Below are positions 1,773-35,554 of a DNA stretch of 41,123 nt, piece after piece (positions within the stretch are counted from its first letter, which is position 1; each line of letters opens with the position of its first letter). A program made the position numbers and the translations under genes. The notes under the pieces are model-generated. The model was given only the letters and a program-made list of their open reading frames with translations. It was not told where the DNA came from and searched no databases. Origin of the DNA: a virus (taxonomy: Duplodnaviria; Heunggongvirae; Uroviricota; Caudoviricetes); IMG/VR virus record IMGVR_UViG_2565956719_000013; one strand, written 5' to 3'.

Positions 1773-2398
1773 ACCGCCAGCACCTTACTGGCAGTGATGT
1801 ACCGCGCTCGCCGGTCGTCGATGCCGTTCCGGCCACCATTGATAATCAGAGTTACACGTGCAATATCGCCGGTATACTTCATGCATCCTTTGCTGGCGAA
1901 GAACCACGCCGCGCTACGAGCCGCATATCCGTCCTGCGCCAGCAGTTCAGGGCTCTCCAGCAGGTCAACCTTCAGACCGTTTCCGCAATCACGATAGTTA
2001 TTCAAACCGGTAATCTGGATAAGTCCGCGCCCTCGGTAATTCCAGCCATCACCAGGGGCATTGTTCCCCATGCGTTTGCTGTATACCAGATTTGCGATCG
2101 CGCGCTGGCGCTCAAGTGGCAATGGTGGTTCACCAGCACGGCGCCCCAGTGCATTAGCCTGCCCCTGAGTGAGACGCCCAGCCCGAACGAAGTTAGCCAG
2201 TCCGCTGACACTGTAGTTGAAATTCTCCTGCAACCTGGTGAAGCCCCCAGACTCATGCCCGACTTGAGCAATAAACATTGCCTGATCTTCTGCTTTGCTG
2301 ATACCAAACTCTTTCATCGCAGAAGTTATATGCGAGAACCAGCGTGCGGCCAGTGCCTCGCTGATACCAGCAGCTCGCTGGAATTGTTTAATCTCCAT
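1769..2398 (-). CDS. endolysin, glycoside hydrolase family 19 (chitinase-like) type
   Basis: ATG at 2398 with GAGG RBS; motifs [12 protein letters not shown] and GRGLIQITG recalled as GH19 lysozyme signatures; lies between holin and Rz. Confidence 0.75.
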
Positions 2399-2696
2399 GT
2401 TTAGACCTCGATACTTTAAAAATTTGAACGACGTTACCGCGCGTTTTAATAACCGCAGCCAGCATGACAGCGTTGATAATGACCTCAGATAAATCCACAG
2501 CCATTGGCGTACGTAACCAGATTGCATAGGCGACTCGAACAGGAATACTGGCCGCAGCAACAATCAGGAAATAAGCAAGCCATCCTCCCCACCTTCGATG
2601 TTGAGAGCCGTTACGCCGGAATGTGACAACGCGAATTGCTATGCCAGTGCAAATAACTGCATTAGTGATAAGCAAAAAAAACTCATGCGTTACCAT
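2388..2696 (-). CDS. small membrane protein of lysis cassette (holin/antiholin-like)
   Basis: GGGGAGA RBS; 2-3 predicted TM helices; overlaps holin end and endolysin start. Confidence 0.5.
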
Positions 2697-3087
2697 CGTC
2701 TTTTCTCCCCGGAATTAACTCGCGTGGATTATCGGAACGGTGATAGAGCCATATACCAATACGCACAGCGACAATTGCTGACACGAATGCGCCTGCAGAG
2801 AAAACAATCCCTTTTTCAAAAGAGTCCTGCGTGATGGTAGGGATCAGGCTGGCTATGCCGATAAGAATTGATGCTGCTGGTTTGTAAAAGAGAAGGCCGC
2901 AAAGAAAGCTGAGCATCGACAGGAGCACCCGGCGACGGATGGGGTACTCTACTGCAGAGGTAACAAAAATTACCGCCCCAGCCAAAGCCCCTAAAGCAAC
3001 CTCCGGAGGGACACCTGCAATAACTGCAGCAAGAGAACCAAAACTAAGCAACTGATTTAATTGCTCACTTGTTACTTGAGCAGACAT
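2683..3087 (-). CDS. putative holin
   Basis: AGGAGA RBS; several hydrophobic helices; charged C-terminus; first gene of lysis cassette. Confidence 0.55.
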   Translation of the reverse strand: MSAQVTSEQLNQLLSFGSLAAVIAGVPPEVALGALAGAVIFVTSAVEYPIRRRVLLSMLSFLCGLLFYKPAASILIGIASLIPTITQDSFEKGIVFSAGAFVSAIVAVRIGIWLYHRSDNPRELIPGRKDDGNA

Positions 3088-3370
3088 ACTTTCTCCTGTT
3101 TACTATCTATAAGCCAGTCAATTATTGATGACTAAACCCGCATAGTAAACCATATATGAATCATTATTGTTCCATATCATATATCTCAATAAAAGTACTA
3201 ATGATTTTACAGAACGAGCCAGCAGAGTGGGGGGGCAGTTGTACAGGAACCATAGACTTAATTTTGTATTTAATAATGCTATGGTGTAATAAACCTGAAC
3301 ATGTATTTAAAATACGTACTGATTCATGATAGAATTCAAAGATAACTTTTCACCAACTCCGTTTTTGATA

Positions 3371-3397: not shown

Positions 3398-6300
3398 AAC
3401 GTTCTTCCAGAGACTGAACCCGCTCTTTTATCTTATCCATTTCTCTGCGCTGCCATGCTGCCTCGATATAGAATAAGAGATCAGGTCTGACCCCCCATCT
3501 AGATCCTGCTGGCGTTATTTCAACGCGCTCAATGATGTCTTCTATTACCATCACTGGATTATCATCCTCATCAACAATGATGCTCCCGTCATTATCAGTC
3601 AGCGGCATTTCCCTTTGGCCAGTAATGACGTCATCATATACTGCGGGATAATCGTCATAGCAAAGAAAGGCATAGCGGCATGTTGTGCTTTCTTCTTCCA
3701 TGAGTCCGTGAGAAATAAGAACATCACGAAGTTGCTGCGCGATTACACCATGATGTATCCTCGCCCCTTCTTCCCCCTTTATAGCGACAGCGTTCAGCCA
3801 TTTATAAGCGATATACCTGACGTCACCCCAGGCATCCAGCAATGTTTCGTCAGGAGAGACCGGCTCTGTCTTTAATGTTCCGTCACTGGTAACCACAGGA
3901 TTGGAGCCAAGATAAACTATCGAGAACCTGTTTCCCGGACCACCAAGAGCATTTACATTATCAAGATAAGGTTTAACATCTCCGTTCTCAAAAAGATGTT
4001 CGAGTGCGTTATATACCGCGCGACGTGGAGTACTGCTTCTGGAACCATGCAACGTTATCATTGCACCATCTGCTGAAGACGTTGTTTCACCGCCGCTAAC
4101 GATTAATCTCTGAGCGGTAACATCATCAGACGGTACTTTCTTCGCAATAATGGCGTAATTACCCTCAAGTTTGACTTCCGCGCGAACTTGTCCTGATGTA
4201 CCTGCATGGACAGTCAGTGACTGGACGGCAACATCATCTGTGAAATCAACGGGTACAGGAACCGTCCTCACGCCTGACGTCGACATAAAAGTAGGAAGCG
4301 TTCTGTTAGGAGTGGCTCCGTAGACAAAATCCCTTGAAACAAATTCTTCCTGTTTAATTTTCACCCTGAAACAATACAAATCAGCCGGGTGACCATCGTG
4401 AACATAAGGATATTTTCTGTTGTTATCCCCTATGCTCCATGGGTTTAGAAAGTCTTCCCCACCGAAAATGTAGTACAGCCAGTTGTCTTTGATACAAACT
4501 GAACCAACACCAACCGCAGAGTTAACTATTCCGCCCTGATAAATCTGATCAGTAACATTAACCCACTCTACATTATCCAGACTCCACTCATTGACGTTAA
4601 CTCTGGTCATAAATGTTCTTGGATAATTTCCTGCATAACGGTTATCAGGTTCTCCTCCTTCCCACTCACCAAATGCGCGCTCACTGCCAAAAATAATCAG
4701 CTCATCGCCAACTTTGGCAAAAGGAAGGTTTGAGTGATGAACATTATTTGGGAAGCGAAGAGAATTCCATGATGTACCTAAATCAGAGCTTCTGTGCAAT
4801 GAACTACCGGGTTGAGTACTTAATGTCCCCCTGGTCGTCAGATACAGAATGCCATCATAATATTTTACACATGGCTCAGATGCATTCGCCTCATATTCTG
4901 CAGGTATGCGTCTGCGAACAAAGCTACCAGGAGAACCGAAAGCATCAGAGAAATAGAGTATCCCAAGCTCGCGTGGACCAATATCACCATTATGGTAGCC
5001 AACAGCAAAACTGTTATCGCTAATCGTCGCAAAACTGTGAATCTCAGTAACAGGAGTGCTTCCGTCAACAAAAGAAGGAATAGTTCCAAGACTGGTTTTT
5101 CTCCATGGTGACGAGTGAAATGATGTACCAAAACTCCAGTATCTACCCTCGTTATTCTGATCCACATCCTGGGTATTTTGCGTCGTAACTGTAAAAGTAT
5201 TTTTATCAATAACAGTAGTCACCGTCATATTCCCGGTAACACCTGTAACACCAGAGTTTGAGAAGTTGACAAAATCACCAGCAAATAATCCGTGATCAGT
5301 AATGCGAATATAAGCGACTTGCTGATTTGCTGCTTTCGTTATACCACCATAAACGCGAAGGCTGCGACTCATTGGGCGATCCCACAACTCTGCAACCTGC
5401 AGTTTATTTCCGCTCACGGTCCGCGTCTCAATTACAGCAAAAAGGCGATTTCTGACAACCCCCATACTCATGCAGTGATAGTTAACTGTGGGATAGTTTT
5501 CATGTAAATCTGTAAGCCATTCCGGCGTTGTCCAGGTCTTCCCGTCATCTCCTGAGCGAACCCATGCAACATGGAGGTTATTTACACCATGGCGGTCTCC
5601 AGCCATAAAAGGCGCATAGATGACATTGTCATATACAAACGTTTTATCCTGCGTCCAGGCGTTGTACCACGGTGTATCTGTAATTTTAAATAACTCTCCC
5701 TGGATAAAATCTTCAGAAGCATAAAAAAGAGGCTGGCCCGGTATTCTCTCAAATAAAAAACGAGCATTTTTAAATCGACTGACATCCGGAAGAGTTGATA
5801 CTTTAAAAGTAAGCCCTAATCCGTCAATTTTATAACCTGGAGATGAGGCTTCAAGGCACGCGCTTATTGCAGTGGAATCGTCATTTATACCATCACCAAC
5901 AGCTCCAAAATCTTTGGGGCTAATAGCATCACGCATTTTATCCTGGAACGTTCGGTACACAGCCCCAGAACCATACTGAATAAACCAACCAAAACCACCA
6001 ACAACCCCGGCGATTGCAGCATCGACATAATTACGCATTGAGCGATTATTTACAGCGTCCTGCTCAAATGATGGATCTGCAAGGTTAGAAATTTTGTTTT
6101 GCTTTGCATCGTAATATTTTGCAAGCAAAGATGGTTTCATCAATGCACGTCTGAACCACCCAAAACATTGCTGGATCAGCATCGTCAGGTAGTCAAAGGC
6201 ATCTTCATGCACTTCGGGGAAAAATTTTCCCTGATTGCGAAGGTCTGTCTCCTGCACTACATCAAGCACACGATCTATCGTAATTCGCCATCCAGTAGCA

Positions 6301-6515
6301 AGCGGAGACGGAAGAACCACAGAACCGCCACTATAAGTGCCCGCCCCAGTTACCGTATAACCGGTATCCAGAACCAATTCTGTTACGTTCCCGTTCAGGT
6401 CAGACACCTGAACAACCAGGTCTGATTTTCTGAAAATTCGAAAAGTATACGGAAACGACGTCGTAACGCCGTTACCGGTGTATTCGTTGTGGTCAACTTC
6501 GGTTGAGACCGTCAT
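3396..6515 (-). CDS. tailspike: T7 gp17-like N-terminal anchor, Asp-box domain, C-terminal intramolecular-chaperone-type domain; candidate endosialidase
   Basis: 1039 aa; GGAG RBS; N-terminal pattern resembles T7 tail-fibre N-domain; two Asp-box motifs (SGDDGKTW, SSDLGTSW); C-terminal SDGTLK...IAQQ... region resembles S74-type autocleaving chaperone domains. Confidence 0.85.
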   Translation of the reverse strand: MTVSTEVDHNEYTGNGVTTSFPYTFRIFRKSDLVVQVSDLNGNVTELVLDTGYTVTGAGTYSGGSVVLPSPLATGWRITIDRVLDVVQETDLRNQGKFFPEVHEDAFDYLTMLIQQCFGWFRRALMKPSLLAKYYDAKQNKISNLADPSFEQDAVNNRSMRNYVDAAIAGVVGGFGWFIQYGSGAVYRTFQDKMRDAISPKDFGAVGDGINDDSTAISACLEASSPGYKIDGLGLTFKVSTLPDVSRFKNARFLFERIPGQPLFYASEDFIQGELFKITDTPWYNAWTQDKTFVYDNVIYAPFMAGDRHGVNNLHVAWVRSGDDGKTWTTPEWLTDLHENYPTVNYHCMSMGVVRNRLFAVIETRTVSGNKLQVAELWDRPMSRSLRVYGGITKAANQQVAYIRITDHGLFAGDFVNFSNSGVTGVTGNMTVTTVIDKNTFTVTTQNTQDVDQNNEGRYWSFGTSFHSSPWRKTSLGTIPSFVDGSTPVTEIHSFATISDNSFAVGYHNGDIGPRELGILYFSDAFGSPGSFVRRRIPAEYEANASEPCVKYYDGILYLTTRGTLSTQPGSSLHRSSDLGTSWNSLRFPNNVHHSNLPFAKVGDELIIFGSERAFGEWEGGEPDNRYAGNYPRTFMTRVNVNEWSLDNVEWVNVTDQIYQGGIVNSAVGVGSVCIKDNWLYYIFGGEDFLNPWSIGDNNRKYPYVHDGHPADLYCFRVKIKQEEFVSRDFVYGATPNRTLPTFMSTSGVRTVPVPVDFTDDVAVQSLTVHAGTSGQVRAEVKLEGNYAIIAKKVPSDDVTAQRLIVSGGETTSSADGAMITLHGSRSSTPRRAVYNALEHLFENGDVKPYLDNVNALGGPGNRFSIVYLGSNPVVTSDGTLKTEPVSPDETLLDAWGDVRYIAYKWLNAVAIKGEEGARIHHGVIAQQLRDVLISHGLMEEESTTCRYAFLCYDDYPAVYDDVITGQREMPLTDNDGSIIVDEDDNPVMVIEDIIERVEITPAGSRWGVRPDLLFYIEAAWQRREMDKIKERVQSLEER

Positions 6516-29506: not shown

Positions 29507-29822
29507 GACCTTCCTCCTTTGGCTTGTGAATTTGTATCGTCATGCCGCTTTGAGTGGTGACTACAACGACAGAACCAGGCTGAAGACTGTTAAGATTGAA
29601 TGCTTCGTAAAACGAAGCCAAGGCCAGCGCTTTTTTATTCTTTCGGTTCCACCAACGCCATCCATTGCTACAGGCTACACTGACAATCCACTGCCCACTC
29701 CTGTAAGCCATATAAAACCAGATGAGCAAAACCTGAATGAATGCTATCCAGTCAATAATCGTATATTTCGCGAAGGAGTCCATCACTTCACCTCCTGTCG
29801 TATATTTCGCGAAGGAGTCCAT
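29499..29822 (-). CDS. small membrane protein; N-terminus spans a 39-bp tandem duplication
   Basis: ATG 29822 overlaps DUF551 stop (TGATG); identical RBS+ATG recurs 39 bp downstream at 29783; one TM helix. Confidence 0.45.
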   Translation of the reverse strand: MDSFAKYTTGGEVMDSFAKYTIIDWIAFIQVLLIWFYMAYRSGQWIVSVACSNGWRWWNRKNKKALALASFYEAFNLNSLQPGSVVVVTTQSGMTIQIHKPKEEGRG

Positions 29823-29836
29823 CACTTCACCTCCTG
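29759..29836. repeat. perfect 39-bp tandem duplication (2 copies)
   Basis: TCGTATATTTCGCGAAGGAGTCCATCACTTCACCTCCTG at 29759-29797 and 29798-29836. Confidence 0.9.
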
Positions 29837-32097: not shown

Positions 32098-32158
32098 CTT
32101 TACCCTCGCTTATCCACATAACTTATTGATTACATTGATAACTAAAAAGATCGTCGAT

Positions 32159-32506: not shown

Positions 32507-32521
32507 TTACCTCTTAGGTAA
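32507..32521. promoter_or_regulatory. operator-like dyad TTACC-N5-GGTAA overlapping RBS
   Basis: TTTACCtcttaGGTAAT, 4 nt upstream of ATG 32503. Confidence 0.5.
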
Positions 32522-32568
32522 TTAAAAACCACATAAGACACGAAATCAATAGATTTTAGAACATTTTA

Positions 32569-32583
32569 TTACCTAACAGGTAA
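32569..32583. promoter_or_regulatory. operator-like dyad TTACC-N5-GGTAA
   Basis: ATTACCtaacaGGTAAT between P-like gene stop and DUF1064 gene. Confidence 0.55.
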
Positions 32584-32620
32584 TTATCGAGACGTAAAAA
32601 AATGCGCTATCGCGCTGGTA

Positions 32621-33421
32621 TTACTTGATAAATCCTGCCGCCTTTCCCCGCCTGTACTCCTCCATCAGCCACTGCGCCGGTGTTATTCCACCAAGGGTGG
32701 CGGCGTTAGGCATGCACCCGAAACTTCGCCCTGGTGGATGGTAAACGTCTCTCCCTGTGTCCGGAGGTGTACTCATGGGCTCTGGCTTTGCCTGTATGCT
32801 GATCACCGGATCGGGTATCTGCTGTCCCGAAGCCACCTTTTTCGCCCAATCATCGAGCAGCCTGCGCGCGTGTTTCTCAACCTCAATCTCGCTAAGCTGG
32901 CGCTGATACATTGCACGGCGGGTATCACATACGACCCAGTACATAACCGGATGCCGCCACGGGAATCTTTCGGGACCACCAGGATATAAACTTTTTTCCT
33001 TGCTGTACCGGTGAAACTCCGCCATCACATCGTCAATGGTGACGCCAAGAACCATCTTGCTGTCTTTGCACCACTTGATAAATTGCCCTGGAGACGGCCA
33101 GAACGGAGATTCACTGGCGCGGGCGTGGCGCATACCAGCAGAAACCTGTTCACGGGTTCGGATCCCCCCTTCGGCAAACGCAGCAATCCACTGCTGTTTT
33201 GCAGCAACTTCCTGCTCTGGCGTCTTCAGGTTGGTTACCACTGCCGCCGGAAACAGTTGTTTCAGCTGTTTAAAAAGGGCATCAACAAGCCTCTCTGCTG
33301 ACATGTTCACCACATTGTCATTGTTGACGTACTGATGCTCATAACCTGACATGCGAGAAAGGGCTTCTCCGTCACGGTTTTGTATCGCGGTAAAAACGTT
33401 GTTCACAAGAAATCCTCCCAT
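32621..33421 (-). CDS. replication protein P-like (helicase loader)
   Basis: QEVAAKQQWIAAFAEGGIRTREQVSAGMRHARASESPFWPSPGQFIKWCKD closely parallels lambda P as recalled; true start may be an internal ATG (33352). Confidence 0.7.
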   Translation of the reverse strand: MGGFLVNNVFTAIQNRDGEALSRMSGYEHQYVNNDNVVNMSAERLVDALFKQLKQLFPAAVVTNLKTPEQEVAAKQQWIAAFAEGGIRTREQVSAGMRHARASESPFWPSPGQFIKWCKDSKMVLGVTIDDVMAEFHRYSKEKSLYPGGPERFPWRHPVMYWVVCDTRRAMYQRQLSEIEVEKHARRLLDDWAKKVASGQQIPDPVISIQAKPEPMSTPPDTGRDVYHPPGRSFGCMPNAATLGGITPAQWLMEEYRRGKAAGFIK

Positions 33422-34218
33422 GCTTCAGGGCTGTTCCAGTGCGGAACGTTGTTATCAGGTAATGTTGATTGCTTCTGTCTGCTAATCTGCAGCCGCCTTG
33501 CCAGCTTCTGCTCCCACTGTGCCTGATGGTATGCCTTACCCTCAGCCATCCAGTAAATTCTGAACTCTGCAAGTTCCTGTGCCGTTGGCAGACTGTCCAG
33601 GTAGATCCCCTGCAATGAGCTTTTCCGAAGAAAGTCATCTGATGGCTGCCATTGTTCATGCATGACAAATTTGCCTAATTGCCCTGGCCCACCAGGAGGA
33701 ACAAAGTTATTCATCACGGCGTTGTTTGCGCCGGGGTCATGAGGCACAGAATCCCCGCTTTTTGTCCTGCTCTCCCTCTCTTGGTTAAATGACTGGTTAT
33801 ATGACTGGTTCTGGATCCCGTTTTTGGGATCATTCAACATCCCGTTTTTGGGATCATTCAACATCCCGTTTTTGGGTATATTCCCATTTTCGGTAACATT
33901 ACCGTTTTCGGGTTCATTACCCCCTTCCCGGTTGCCTTTAATGTTCCCGTTTTTGGTTATATTAAGAGAGAAAACCCGCACTCTTTTCGTCGCTCCCTTT
34001 CTCTCTCCGGTATCTGAAATAAGCCCCATTTTCATGAGCGATATAAGCCCGGCCTGCACGGTTTTTTTATTCAGGCAAGTGTCTTTAACGAGGCGTTCTA
34101 TGCTGGGGTAGCAGAGGTTATATTCATCGGCTCTGTCAGCCATCGAGAGCAGTATGAGCTTTAATGACGAGCTACCTGGATCTGTCTCCCAGGCCCAATC
34201 TGTTGCATGTCTGCTCAT
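33403..34218 (-). CDS. replication initiator, O-like, with origin iterons inside the gene
   Basis: GGAGAT RBS; N-terminal HTH-like region; central NG(N/M)-repeat peptide encoded by DNA iterons. Confidence 0.6.
   Translation of the reverse strand: MSRHATDWAWETDPGSSSLKLILLSMADRADEYNLCYPSIERLVKDTCLNKKTVQAGLISLMKMGLISDTGERKGATKRVRVFSLNITKNGNIKGNREGGNEPENGNVTENGNIPKNGMLNDPKNGMLNDPKNGIQNQSYNQSFNQERESRTKSGDSVPHDPGANNAVMNNFVPPGGPGQLGKFVMHEQWQPSDDFLRKSSLQGIYLDSLPTAQELAEFRIYWMAEGKAYHQAQWEQKLARRLQISRQKQSTLPDNNVPHWNSPEAWEDFL
33815..33959. repeat. origin-like iteron array
   Basis: ATCCCGTTTTTGGGAT at 33815, 33839, 33863 (24-bp spacing) plus degenerate copies at 33881, ~33899, 33944; adjacent ATGACTGGTT x2 at 33789-33810. 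Confidence 0.6.
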
Positions 34219-34233
34219 GATTAATCTCCGCTA

Positions 34234-34434
34234 TCAGCTTGAATGTTGTGGGGAGGAATTAATCATGATCTGCTTAATCTCTGCCCTGATGCGACGGTTT
34301 GATTCCATGGTGCACTCAACACAGTGTCCGTTGTAAACCCAGCGTTCACTGTCATGTCCGTGCTTACATGGTTTTCCGGTGTAGTAGCGTTTAAGTCCGC
34401 GCTTTGCGGCATCAATACGTGTAATGATTTCCAT
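34234..34434 (-). CDS. small Cys-rich (zinc-ribbon-like) protein
   Basis: ATG 34434; 66 aa with CKHGH...CVEC; first gene after cro-like terminator. Confidence 0.4.
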   Translation of the reverse strand: MEIITRIDAAKRGLKRYYTGKPCKHGHDSERWVYNGHCVECTMESNRRIRAEIKQIMINSSPQHSS

Positions 34435-34514
34435 GGTAAGCCCTGTTATTAGTATTGGGATTACGGTCATTTTGTGCTGACACAAAAAAAAGATCAACCA
34501 GATTTGGTTATTTA

Positions 34515-34529
34515 TTACCTTTGAGGTAC
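34515..34529. promoter_or_regulatory. operator-like dyad, imperfect (TTACC-N5-GGTAC)
   Basis: ATTACCtttgaGGTACG just downstream of cro-like terminator. Confidence 0.4.
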
Positions 34530-34537
34530 GAATAGAT

Positions 34538-34562
34538 ATGAAAAGACCGCCGGGTGGCGGTC
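34538..34562 (-). terminator. intrinsic terminator after cro-like gene
   Basis: GACCGCC (34545-34551) / GGCGGTC (34556-34562), loop GGGT; minus-strand UUUUCAU. Confidence 0.55.
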
Positions 34563-34584
34563 TACAGAGGGTTGTAGCTGGATA

Positions 34585-34815
34585 TCATGAGTAGAAGAAG
34601 TATGCCAGTTCTGCTTTTGAGCGCAGCCATTGTCTTGTTTTACAGGCTTTAAAAAGCCCATTCATCAATACTTTACCTGGCATTTTGCGCTTACCTGTTA
34701 AGTGAGTCTGGATATAGTGACTCGTCGTTCCGGCTTCCTGTGCGAAGGCTTCACGCTCATCCGGAGTAAGTGCAAGCCAGTGCTTTTTGAAATCGAAATG
34801 TCCGTTATCGCTCAT
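34585..34815 (-). CDS. Cro-like small DNA-binding regulator
   Basis: 76 aa; HTH-like EREAFAQEAGTTSHYIQTHL; divergent from CI-like gene; transcribed toward replication genes. Confidence 0.55.
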   Translation of the reverse strand: MSDNGHFDFKKHWLALTPDEREAFAQEAGTTSHYIQTHLTGKRKMPGKVLMNGLFKACKTRQWLRSKAELAYFFYS

Positions 34816-34882
34816 AGCTATTGCCTGATATTTATTTCAGATAATAAATATTCACCCATAAGGTAACAAAAATCAAGGATAG

Positions 34883-34897
34883 TTACCTATGAGGTGC
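34883..34897. promoter_or_regulatory. operator-like dyad, imperfect (TTACC-N5-GGTGC), in switch region
   Basis: AGTTACCtatgaGGTGC; 16 bp centre-to-centre from the next dyad. Confidence 0.45.
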
Positions 34898-34898
34898 A

Positions 34899-34913
34899 TT
34901 TACCTGTTGGGTA
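34899..34913. promoter_or_regulatory. operator-like dyad TTACC-N5-GGTAA in switch region
   Basis: TTTACCtgttgGGTAAT between cro-like and CI-like genes. Confidence 0.6.
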
Positions 34914-34969
34914 ATATTGCTTTAAATTGAATCATCTACTGATTCATATATGAGGCGATTTTCCAGAAA

Positions 34970-35554
34970 ATGAAAAGTATCCAGGACGTCCGCAGGCAAA
35001 ATCTCAACGACTTGATCGACCGTGAATTCAATGGTGTTCAGACGCGGATGGCAGAAAAACTTGGAACTCAGGCAAATCTGGTAAACCGCTGGGCTCTTGG
35101 CAAGAAGGTTATCGGCGACCAGGTTGCGCGAAAAATTGAAGCTGCCGCCAATAAACCCCGTAACTGGCTTGATATTGATCGCTCGCTTTCTCAGGAGGGT
35201 TTTCAGCCTGTCGGCCCGAGCGATATAGGTCAGCTGGCGGCTCACAACCTGGAACGCTGGATGAGCGAAAGCCGCGACCTTTCAACGCAGGGAAAACTAC
35301 ACCGCGCATCCGGCGTCGCCCAGGTGACAATCAGCCGCCTGTTAAACAATGAGGTCAGCGTTTCCATTTCCACCCTGGAGAATGTTGCATCCGCATTCGG
35401 GCGTCACGGCTATGAACTACTGATTCACCCGCACGACCCTGCGACTATCAACTATGACCGCTCACGCTACGCATTGTTACCCGAAACCGAGAAAGCAAAG
35501 ATCGAAAGTTACATTGAATTTGTCATCAACCAGAACGAAAAAAACAAACAATAA
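34970..35554 (+). CDS. CI-like repressor with two HTH domains, no S24 peptidase domain
   Basis: 194 aa; HTH-like segments QTRMAEKLGTQANLVNRW and SGVAQVTISRLLNNEVSVSISTLENVASAF; no Ser-Lys protease region; poor RBS; 7-codon upstream mini-ORF ends in ATGA at the start. Confidence 0.65.
   Translation: MKSIQDVRRQNLNDLIDREFNGVQTRMAEKLGTQANLVNRWALGKKVIGDQVARKIEAAANKPRNWLDIDRSLSQEGFQPVGPSDIGQLAAHNLERWMSESRDLSTQGKLHRASGVAQVTISRLLNNEVSVSISTLENVASAFGRHGYELLIHPHDPATINYDRSRYALLPETEKAKIESYIEFVINQNEKNKQ

Follow-up and report, generated by a model that had tools for sequence, protein, structure and literature searches.

The closest described counterpart of the locus considered here is the replication origin of phage lambda, ori-lambda, which lies inside the gene of the initiator O, where four dyad iterons of 18-19 bp (spacings 20, 24 and 23) encode the linker between a winged-helix N-terminus and a C-terminal domain. 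In the classical picture, the N-terminal part of O sets the origin specificity and the C-terminal part contacts P. An origin inside the initiator gene is also known from SPP1 (gene 38) and from the initiator genes of Lactobacillus phage A2 and lactococcal phage Tuc2009. Iteron plasmids of the RepA, pi and TrfA types employ winged-helix initiators on tandem sites located by an unwinding region with short repeats of its own; their iterons are as a rule direct repeats outside the rep gene, to which monomers bind, and DnaA boxes are usual. In Alteromonadales and Oceanospirillales, the domesticated chromosomal genes of DopC and DopE combine HTH_36 with a DnaT C-terminal motif beside a lambda-P-like gene; Brezellec et al. 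(2017, PMC5509034) describe the pair as derived from lambda O/P and detected nothing iteron-like in it. The present work concerns a repeat array in the minus-strand gene 33403..34218 of IMGVR_UViG_2565956719_000013, a record of 41,123 nucleotides from a virus of the Caudoviricetes (this whole stretch is called the window below). Judged from sequence, the array is quite probably the core of the phage replication origin, located in the lambda manner inside the gene of the initiator presumed to bind it. As in lambda, the iterons are linker-coding and lie between a winged-helix N-terminus and a C-terminal domain; at least four dyad sites inside the gene and between the domains are one mark of the lambda O/ori-lambda type, and six are present here. 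The gene and its two domains are the following:

33403..34218, minus strand: replication initiator gene, 271 amino acids (aa), an open reading frame (ORF) with an HTH_36 winged-helix N-terminus, a repeat-encoded linker and a DnaT-like C-terminus
33955..34218, minus strand: N-terminal winged-helix domain, aa 1-88, presumed iteron-binding (AlphaFold, Foldseek)
33424..33681, minus strand: DnaT-like C-terminal domain, aa 180-265, presumed to contact the P-like loader or single-stranded DNA (ssDNA) (phmmer)

Six 16-bp dyads (gene-sense ATCCCAAAAACGGGAT) occupy positions 33815-33959 and encode aa 87-135, and 2.4 tandem 12-mers occupy positions 33782-33810. The dyad ATCCCAAAAACGGGAT consists of inverted 5-bp arms, ATCCC and GGGAT, flanking AAAAAC. 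In the list of elements below, the scores are those of a 16-position motif model trained on seven phage lineages and, in part, on the window's own iteron copies:

33944..33959, minus strand: iteron 1, gene-sense TAACCAAAAACGGGAA, 16.8 bits
33915..33943, minus strand: gap with a decayed iteron copy, encoding NIKGNREGG; no match to the motif model, likeness by eye only
33899..33914, minus strand: iteron 2, AACCCGAAAACGGTAA, 18.5 bits
33881..33896, minus strand: iteron 3, TTACCGAAAATGGGAA, 15.2 bits
33863..33878, minus strand: iteron 4, TACCCAAAAACGGGAT, 19.7 bits
33839..33854, minus strand: iteron 5, ATCCCAAAAACGGGAT, 22.1 bits; identical to iteron 6, 24 bp off
33815..33830, minus strand: iteron 6, ATCCCAAAAACGGGAT, 22.1 bits
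33782..33810, minus strand: second repeat element, tandem 12-mers AACCAGTCATAT / AACCAGTCATTT / AACCA, adjoining the last iteron

The repeats are real and non-random. With up to two mismatches allowed, the 41 kb contain five copies of the 12-mer CCCGTTTTTGGG, all of them within 33817-33957, and the motif model finds six matches of 15-22 bits in the window, all of them in the array, the sole other match of at least 12 bits scoring 12.3 bits. Tandem Repeats Finder reports 2.4 copies with a period of 12 bp at 33782-33810 (AACCAGTCAT repeats); besides the array, the window has only two other tandem arrays. The initial annotation had already placed an origin-like array at 33789-33959, where it is indeed found, although the copies differ in part from that description. 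Of three 16-mer copies said to stand exactly 24 bp apart, the spacing is exact, but ATCCCGTTTTTGGGAT itself occurs only twice (33815 and 33839); at 33863, the third copy has ATCCCGTTTTTGGGTA instead, with a difference in the last two bases, whereas the 14-mer ATCCCGTTTTTGGG and the 12-mer CCCGTTTTTGGG are each exact in all three. Likewise, of three degenerate copies at about 18 bp, two follow in 18-bp steps (33881-33896 and 33899-33914), but the third lies further off, at 33944-33959; the 27 bp separating it from the copy at 33899-33914 hold the decayed copy which fails the motif model. The tandem ATGACTGGTT pair is present as described, at 33789 and 33801, inside the 12-bp-period repeat. On the plus strand at 33825-33868, two terminator-like antisense matches are built from the arms of adjacent iterons and a T5 run; these were rejected as separate features, being probably a by-product of neighbouring iteron arms and the T run, although such sites could in principle stop antisense transcription.

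All six copies in the window stand in one reading frame, so that the window alone cannot separate a role of the DNA from a role of the peptide. On the minus strand, the repeats read NITKNG / NEPENG / NVTENG / NIPKNG / MLNDPKNG (twice) / IQNQSYNQSFNQ (aa 86-146). They might therefore serve the protein only, as a flexible linker rich in N, G, P and K which varies by slippage and whose DNA has no function of its own; in favour of this are the common frame, the predicted disorder of the segment and the number of MLNDPKNG units, which ranges from 2 to 8 among close relatives. The replication region (32600-34600, 2 kb queried) is 97.6-99% identical to that of phiV10, phiv142-3, PAS61 and other Uetakevirus (epsilon15-like) phages of E. 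coli, and the initiator gene was found in 424 of 5426 complete E. coli genomes, where the module sits in prophages. The prophage copies carry 2 to 8 of the 24-bp units, and certain variants duplicate blocks of degenerate copies. A first protein search gave, among the matches listed, only close E. coli relatives (at least 86% identity), and a scan of viral contigs with a 7-sequence alignment recovered only near-identical phiV10-like loci, which were usable for the unit copy number; since the 24-bp units are almost invariant in them, synonymous-site constraint could not be tested.

More distant relatives were informative. A tblastn search against phage genomes revealed genes sharing only the N-terminus in Edwardsiella phage GF-2, in PPompW and Shiga toxin (Stx2a) phages, in Vibrio phage Her and its relatives, in Acinetobacter AP22 and Ab105-2phi and in Burkholderia Bcep176, and genes sharing only the C-terminus in ZX5, SPN1S and Tyrion. 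All of the N-terminus-sharing phage genes possess a similar dyad array about 260-470 nt into the gene, and none of the three C-terminus-only genes does. Moreover, in GF-2, PPompW, Her, AP22 and Bcep176 the copies stand in differing reading frames and encode unrelated peptides. The motif model was then applied to 50 loci from one-genome-per-species contigs, found solely through peptide patterns of the N-terminal domain (4-sequence alignment), with an N-terminal identity to the window protein of 30-87% and a range covering gamma-, beta- and alpha-proteobacteria and Desulfovibrionaceae. Among the sense-strand matches, 128 of 139 fell at +200 to +500 nt of the ORF, with the 3.2-kb flanks nearly empty; 43 loci had at least one match, and in 27 of the 50, as in several phages, the motif was kept in two or three frames (giving unrelated peptides, for example PKNG, TQKR and DPKT), contrary to what a peptide repeat would require. 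The commonest spacings were 24 (22 times), 17 (17 times) and 18 (9 times), and 22 nt was also common; spacings of 17 and 22 nt likewise speak against selection for the peptide. The distant loci that failed the model had different arrays of their own at the same position, some with out-of-frame spacings (17, 22 and 23 nt), as with the diverged array GTGCCAAAAGTGGCAC at the equivalent position in a Zoogloeaceae genome. Different arrays at the same place in distant relatives are the pattern expected if initiator and sites diverge together.

The dyads themselves show the same kind of constraint. CC and GG never vary, and complementarity at positions 1/16, 2/15 and 3/14 exceeds the expectation from column composition, a co-variation which is indicative only because the sites are phylogenetically non-independent, but which a repeat kept for its peptide would not predict. 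Complementary arms might also mean that the dyads act as hairpins in mRNA or ssDNA, for example in translation pausing or mRNA stability, and the sense RNA of 33782-33965 indeed folds at -50 kcal/mol (z-score -2.57 against shuffles). However, any run of DNA palindromes would give this extra folding energy, the two pairs of CC/GG are the sole invariant ones, complementarity at the outer arm positions holds for just 45-71% of sites, with mismatches that are not of the G-U type, and the central A-tract, needless for a loop, is the best conserved part. Hairpins are therefore the least credible of the explanations considered.

In the reverse direction, 2.9 million viral contigs were searched with nothing but the DNA pattern (two CCCAAAAACGG within 5-15 nt). 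This recovered 80 viral loci. In 73 of them, the N-terminal domain of the initiator is encoded upstream of the sites and on their strand, with 3-186 nt between its end and the sites; 36 of these 73 domains have less than 95% identity to that of the window. In three further loci (L170, L217 and L222), the array stands in DNA that appears to be non-coding, its only open frame having 69-101 codons and no Pfam family, and no HTH_36 N-terminal domain was detected within 600 nt upstream of the array. The short frame of L222 runs through the sites in a further phase, and the locus has one inverted copy as well as 12-mers in the opposite orientation: its positions 6170-6360 carry ATCCCAAAAACGGGTA at 24-bp spacing, the inverted copy among them, and reversed GAAYC repeats. 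An AAA+ ATPase gene with a C-terminal helix-turn-helix (HTH) lies about 500 nt downstream of the L222 array. The orphan arrays may be origins that use an initiator supplied in trans. Taken together, the copies in several frames, the co-variation of the dyad arms, the diverged arrays and the reverse test with its non-coding arrays, one of them with an inverted copy, show that selection acts on the DNA, and a function through the linker peptide alone is highly unlikely.

The same data bear on whether the sites could serve some other factor or process, such as DNA packaging (as a pac site), partition, a nucleoid protein of the host or a different regulator of the phage. A-tract repeats can bind host bending proteins, and intragenic repeats are pac sites in some phages. 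On the other hand, the HTH_36 N-terminal domain is the one constant partner found for the array, in the 50 loci and in 73 of the 80 pattern loci (the genes upstream were not surveyed), whereas the C-terminal domains and downstream genes examined vary, and the repeat sequence diverges along with the N-terminal domain. A different binding partner is thus extremely improbable.

This modularity is visible throughout the family. HTH_36 was present in all 30 relatives scanned and the DnaT C-terminus in only 3 of them, the gene downstream of the initiator being P-like, DnaC/IstB-like, DnaB-like or other. GF-2 gp62 (L003 2501-3343) is a natural chimera in which aa 1-127 show 52% identity to the window protein and aa 137-280 show 62% identity to aa 156-299 of lambda O, with the junction just past the repeats, where lambda's iterons and AT-rich tract end. 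Together with the varying C-termini and downstream genes, the chimera points to the N-terminal domain and the array as one exchangeable origin-recognition unit, which agrees with the classical division of labour within O. In the uetakevirus SPN1S of Salmonella (L007 2048-3328), the C-terminus of the initiator is DnaT-like, but the N-terminus is of another kind and the iteron array is missing; the gene after this initiator is DUF1064 and not P-like. The origin and the helicase-loading route of SPN1S must differ.

The dyads are not the only conserved element. In most relatives, 2-3 tandem repeats with a GAAYC core directly follow the last dyad, with a period of 12-13 nt, or of 9-11 nt in Bcep176, PPompW and the beta-proteobacterial loci, so that the copies are out of frame there. 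A GAAYC triple was found at +300 to +600 in 32 of the 50 loci, against just two occurrences outside that interval in about 160 kb. The GAAYC core is constant from Escherichia to Acinetobacter and Burkholderia, despite changed dyad arms and whatever loader gene comes next, and in many lineages an A-rich tract with 70-80% A+T comes after the repeats. In the window, the ATGACTGGTT pair represents this element, and only one 30-mer of the gene is less stable than that at 33777-33806 in the 12-mer region (-34.9 kcal/mol, about 2 standard deviations above the gene mean), which makes 33782-33810 a candidate unwinding or loading region. The GAAYC element could, by analogy, be comparable in role to DnaA-trios. 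A tentative, and on balance doubtful, proposal covers this element and the orphan arrays jointly: the dyads may be one half of a two-part origin signature, with the GAAYC triple as an undescribed recognition element that binds ssDNA or loads the helicase, and the orphan arrays would then be origins of elements that borrow the initiator of a helper phage.

The site of DNA opening is the weakest point of the origin model, and it heads a number of observations which weigh against it, in addition to the single frame of the six copies and the 2 to 8 copies of the 24-bp MLNDPKNG unit, which from the window alone would leave room for a slippage-prone peptide repeat. No unwinding element stands out as strongly AT-rich: the least stable 30-mers of the gene are at the two edges of the array (-33.4 and -34.9 kcal/mol) and miss the least stable 1% of the window (-32.9), and in lambda the AT-rich tract reaches -30.3 and is clearly the least stable part of gene O. 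No DnaA box lies near the array, the nearest perfect one being 1.7 kb away, and the 24- and 18-bp spacings are not whole helical turns. As for the protein, its N-terminus has no match to Pfam Phage_rep_O (PF04492), which lambda O matched in the same scan with E 5.7e-36, and an hhalign comparison of the N-terminal alignment with lambda O gave a probability of 2.3%, which is not significant.

Accepting the binding of the initiator, one may still ask whether the sites serve control, i.e., autoregulation of initiator and P, copy control by handcuffing or exclusion of related phages, with the DNA opening elsewhere. Plasmid iterons serve initiation and control alike, no clear AT-rich unwinding element adjoins the iterons, and AT-rich intergenic stretches are available at 32510-32600 and 34790-34970. 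However, the array occupies the position of lambda's origin, in GF-2 it stands in place of lambda's iterons and AT-rich tract, the conserved second repeat (followed in many relatives by the A-rich tract) adjoins the dyads as an unwinding region would, and no other repeat array in the window is an origin candidate. A purely regulatory role is accordingly improbable, but it is a serious residual alternative to an origin.

For an origin at the array, the following sequence of events is proposed, in which binding, unwinding, helicase recruitment and origin firing are the steps that we infer; what the analysis shows is the repeats and where they lie, the conservation of the DNA across frames and lineages, the linkage of the array to the N-terminal domain, and the domain folds. 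Transcription from the early-right promoter would lead to synthesis of the initiator, whose N-terminal winged-helix dimers would bind the six 16-bp dyads through the CC-N6-GG core and the flanking arms. The bound dimers would form a multimeric nucleoprotein complex like the lambda O-some, the adjoining GAAYC-type 12-mer region would be destabilised, and the DnaT-like C-terminal domain would recruit the lambda-P-like loader carrying the host DnaB. The initiator would tolerate any site-encoded peptide because the sites lie in its flexible inter-domain linker.

The domain structure of the initiator is consistent with this scheme. Pfam recognised HTH_36 (PF13730) at aa 18-67 (E 1.8e-10) and DnaT at aa 184-252 (E 1.2e-15), and the best-fitting PHROG was 1032, 'replication initiation protein' (E 1.3e-108), with weaker matches to the 'replication initiation O-like' PHROGs 391, 678 and 345. 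An AlphaFold model (20-sequence alignment) showed a predicted local distance difference test (pLDDT) score of 78-93 for aa 1-88, with the winged-helix topology helix-helix-helix-helix-strand-strand, and of about 30 for aa 89-232. The latter segment takes in the entire repeat-encoded part (aa 86-146) and is predicted to be disordered between the two domains, in agreement with the initial annotation, which read the repeats as coding for an NG-rich linker; the DnaT-like domain was poorly modelled because the alignment is shallow there. A Foldseek search of the BFVD viral models retrieved relatives, among them the Min27 'replication protein O' (E 5.7e-9) and a 'lambda GpO N-terminal' protein (E 5.8e-6), while against the PDB only generic winged-helix DNA binders appeared, with E 0.003 or worse. 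By phmmer, the C-terminal domain matched the DnaT chains 9zbt, 6aep and 4ou6 in the PDB (E 7e-21 to 4e-20). The NCBIfam DnaT equivalog NF002770 scored 85 bits against a cutoff of 201, with only aa 181-264 aligned, and therefore the names 'primosomal protein' and 'DnaT' fit the C-terminal domain of the initiator only. BLASTP of the initiator against lambda O gave nothing, the lambda O C-terminus included. Consequently, the term 'O-like' in the initial annotation holds for function and fold but not for the sequence family, which is HTH_36 and not Phage_rep_O, with a DnaT-like C-terminus; a common descent of the initiator and lambda O N-termini is suggested by likeness of fold and by the statement in PMC5509034. 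The lambda-type placement of the origin inside the initiator gene, also claimed in the initial annotation, gained support from the comparative evidence and from lambda as a control, origin activity itself being probable.

The genes and sites around the initiator are as follows:

32621..33421, minus strand: lambda-P-family helicase-loader gene (Pfam Phage_lambda_P, PF06992, E 1.5e-56; PHROG 109, 'P-like helicase loader')
34544..34869, minus strand: putative early-right control region upstream of the initiator (consensus scans)
34869-34841, minus strand: promoter-like site (consensus scan only)
34815..34585, minus strand: cro-like gene (PHROG 35, 'transcriptional repressor')
34563-34544, minus strand: terminator-like hairpin (consensus scan only)

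In an identical prophage, the Prokaryotic Genome Annotation Pipeline (PGAP) starts the P-like gene with a GTG at 33406, which yields a 4-nt GTGA overlap with the stop codon of the initiator. Upstream of the initiator there are a small ORF, the terminator-like hairpin, the cro-like gene with its promoter-like site and a divergent repressor gene; transcripts started at the putative early-right promoter would cross the iterons. The sole perfect DnaA box of the window, TTATCCACA, is at 32110-32118 on the plus strand, in the gap separating a DUF1064 gene from its neighbour, and the iterons are 1.7 kb away. At 29759-29836, a perfect 39-bp tandem duplication spans a minus-strand gene junction, with the ribosome-binding site GGAGGTG and, after it, a TGA/ATG overlap; the first 13 codons of the downstream gene are thereby doubled in frame.

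Within the open-access literature, no description of the phiV10/epsilon15-type origin or its iterons was found, the original genome papers of phiV10 and epsilon15 possibly lying outside that scope. A paper on the replication region of Stx phages does not mention iterons (PMC8044961). In databases, the gene goes under 'primosomal protein' or 'DnaT-like', with no origin marked; the likely origin is now placed for phiV10-type phages, which are in use as reporter phages for E. coli O157:H7. Moreover, a signature is proposed for finding origins in a large initiator family, and the window gene carries it: 16-bp dyads of the form CC-N6-GG in an array, with GAAYC repeats after them, at 200-500 nt from the start of an HTH_36 gene; relatives of the module are spread across Proteobacteria, and the natural chimeras indicate that the N-terminal domain and its sites travel as one unit. 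The case also cautions against taking 'low-complexity linkers' as features of the protein alone.

Compared with the named systems, the locus shares with E. coli DnaT the homology of aa 180-265 to DnaT aa 85-170 (E 7e-21), but the N-terminal half is unrelated, and DnaT acts in PriA-dependent replication restart and not at iterons. With the iteron plasmids and the replisome-organizer phages, no sequence relationship was shown, and the present array has no DnaA box near it. The domain architecture next to a P-like gene equals that of DopC and DopE, but here the gene is in a phage and has a full iteron array. GF-2 gp62 ('replication initiation O-like') has the same N-terminal domain and array, with ATCCCAAAATTGGGAT three times at 24 bp, then GAAYC-type repeats and then a P gene, and differs in its lambda-O-type C-terminal domain, as opposed to the DnaT-like one here.

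Two further comparisons connect the array with lambda. The viral contig L180 (IMGVR_UViG_3300023215_001397) carries the CCC-N6-GGG dyad TTACCCAAAAACGGGTAA within the gene, right after the N-terminal domain, but this N-terminus is a true Phage_rep_O (PF04492, E 1.5e-31), and its five dyads (2346-3138), spaced 26, 22, 22 and 22 and thus in all three frames, are followed by an AT-rich tract as in lambda. L180 thereby links the HTH_36 and PF04492 N-terminal families through a shared site type. Lambda itself has TCCC...GGGA arms around an A-rich centre, as here (ATCCCTCAAAACGAGGGAT against ATCCCAAAAACGGGAT), the P-family gene next to the initiator with a 4-nt stop-start overlap, and the same order of repressor, cro, initiator and P (in lambda: repressor/cro/(cII)/O/P). 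It differs in the Phage_rep_O N-terminus and lambda-O C-terminus in place of HTH_36 and DnaT-like, in four 18-19-bp dyad iterons compared to six sites with a dyad 3 bp shorter, so that the lambda iterons do not score with the motif model, and in a strongly AT-rich tract where the 12-mer repeats stand here. Overall, the annotation as an origin is well supported and unsurprising: very probably, this is a lambda-type origin in an initiator gene of a non-lambda family, by which the lambda paradigm is extended and not changed.

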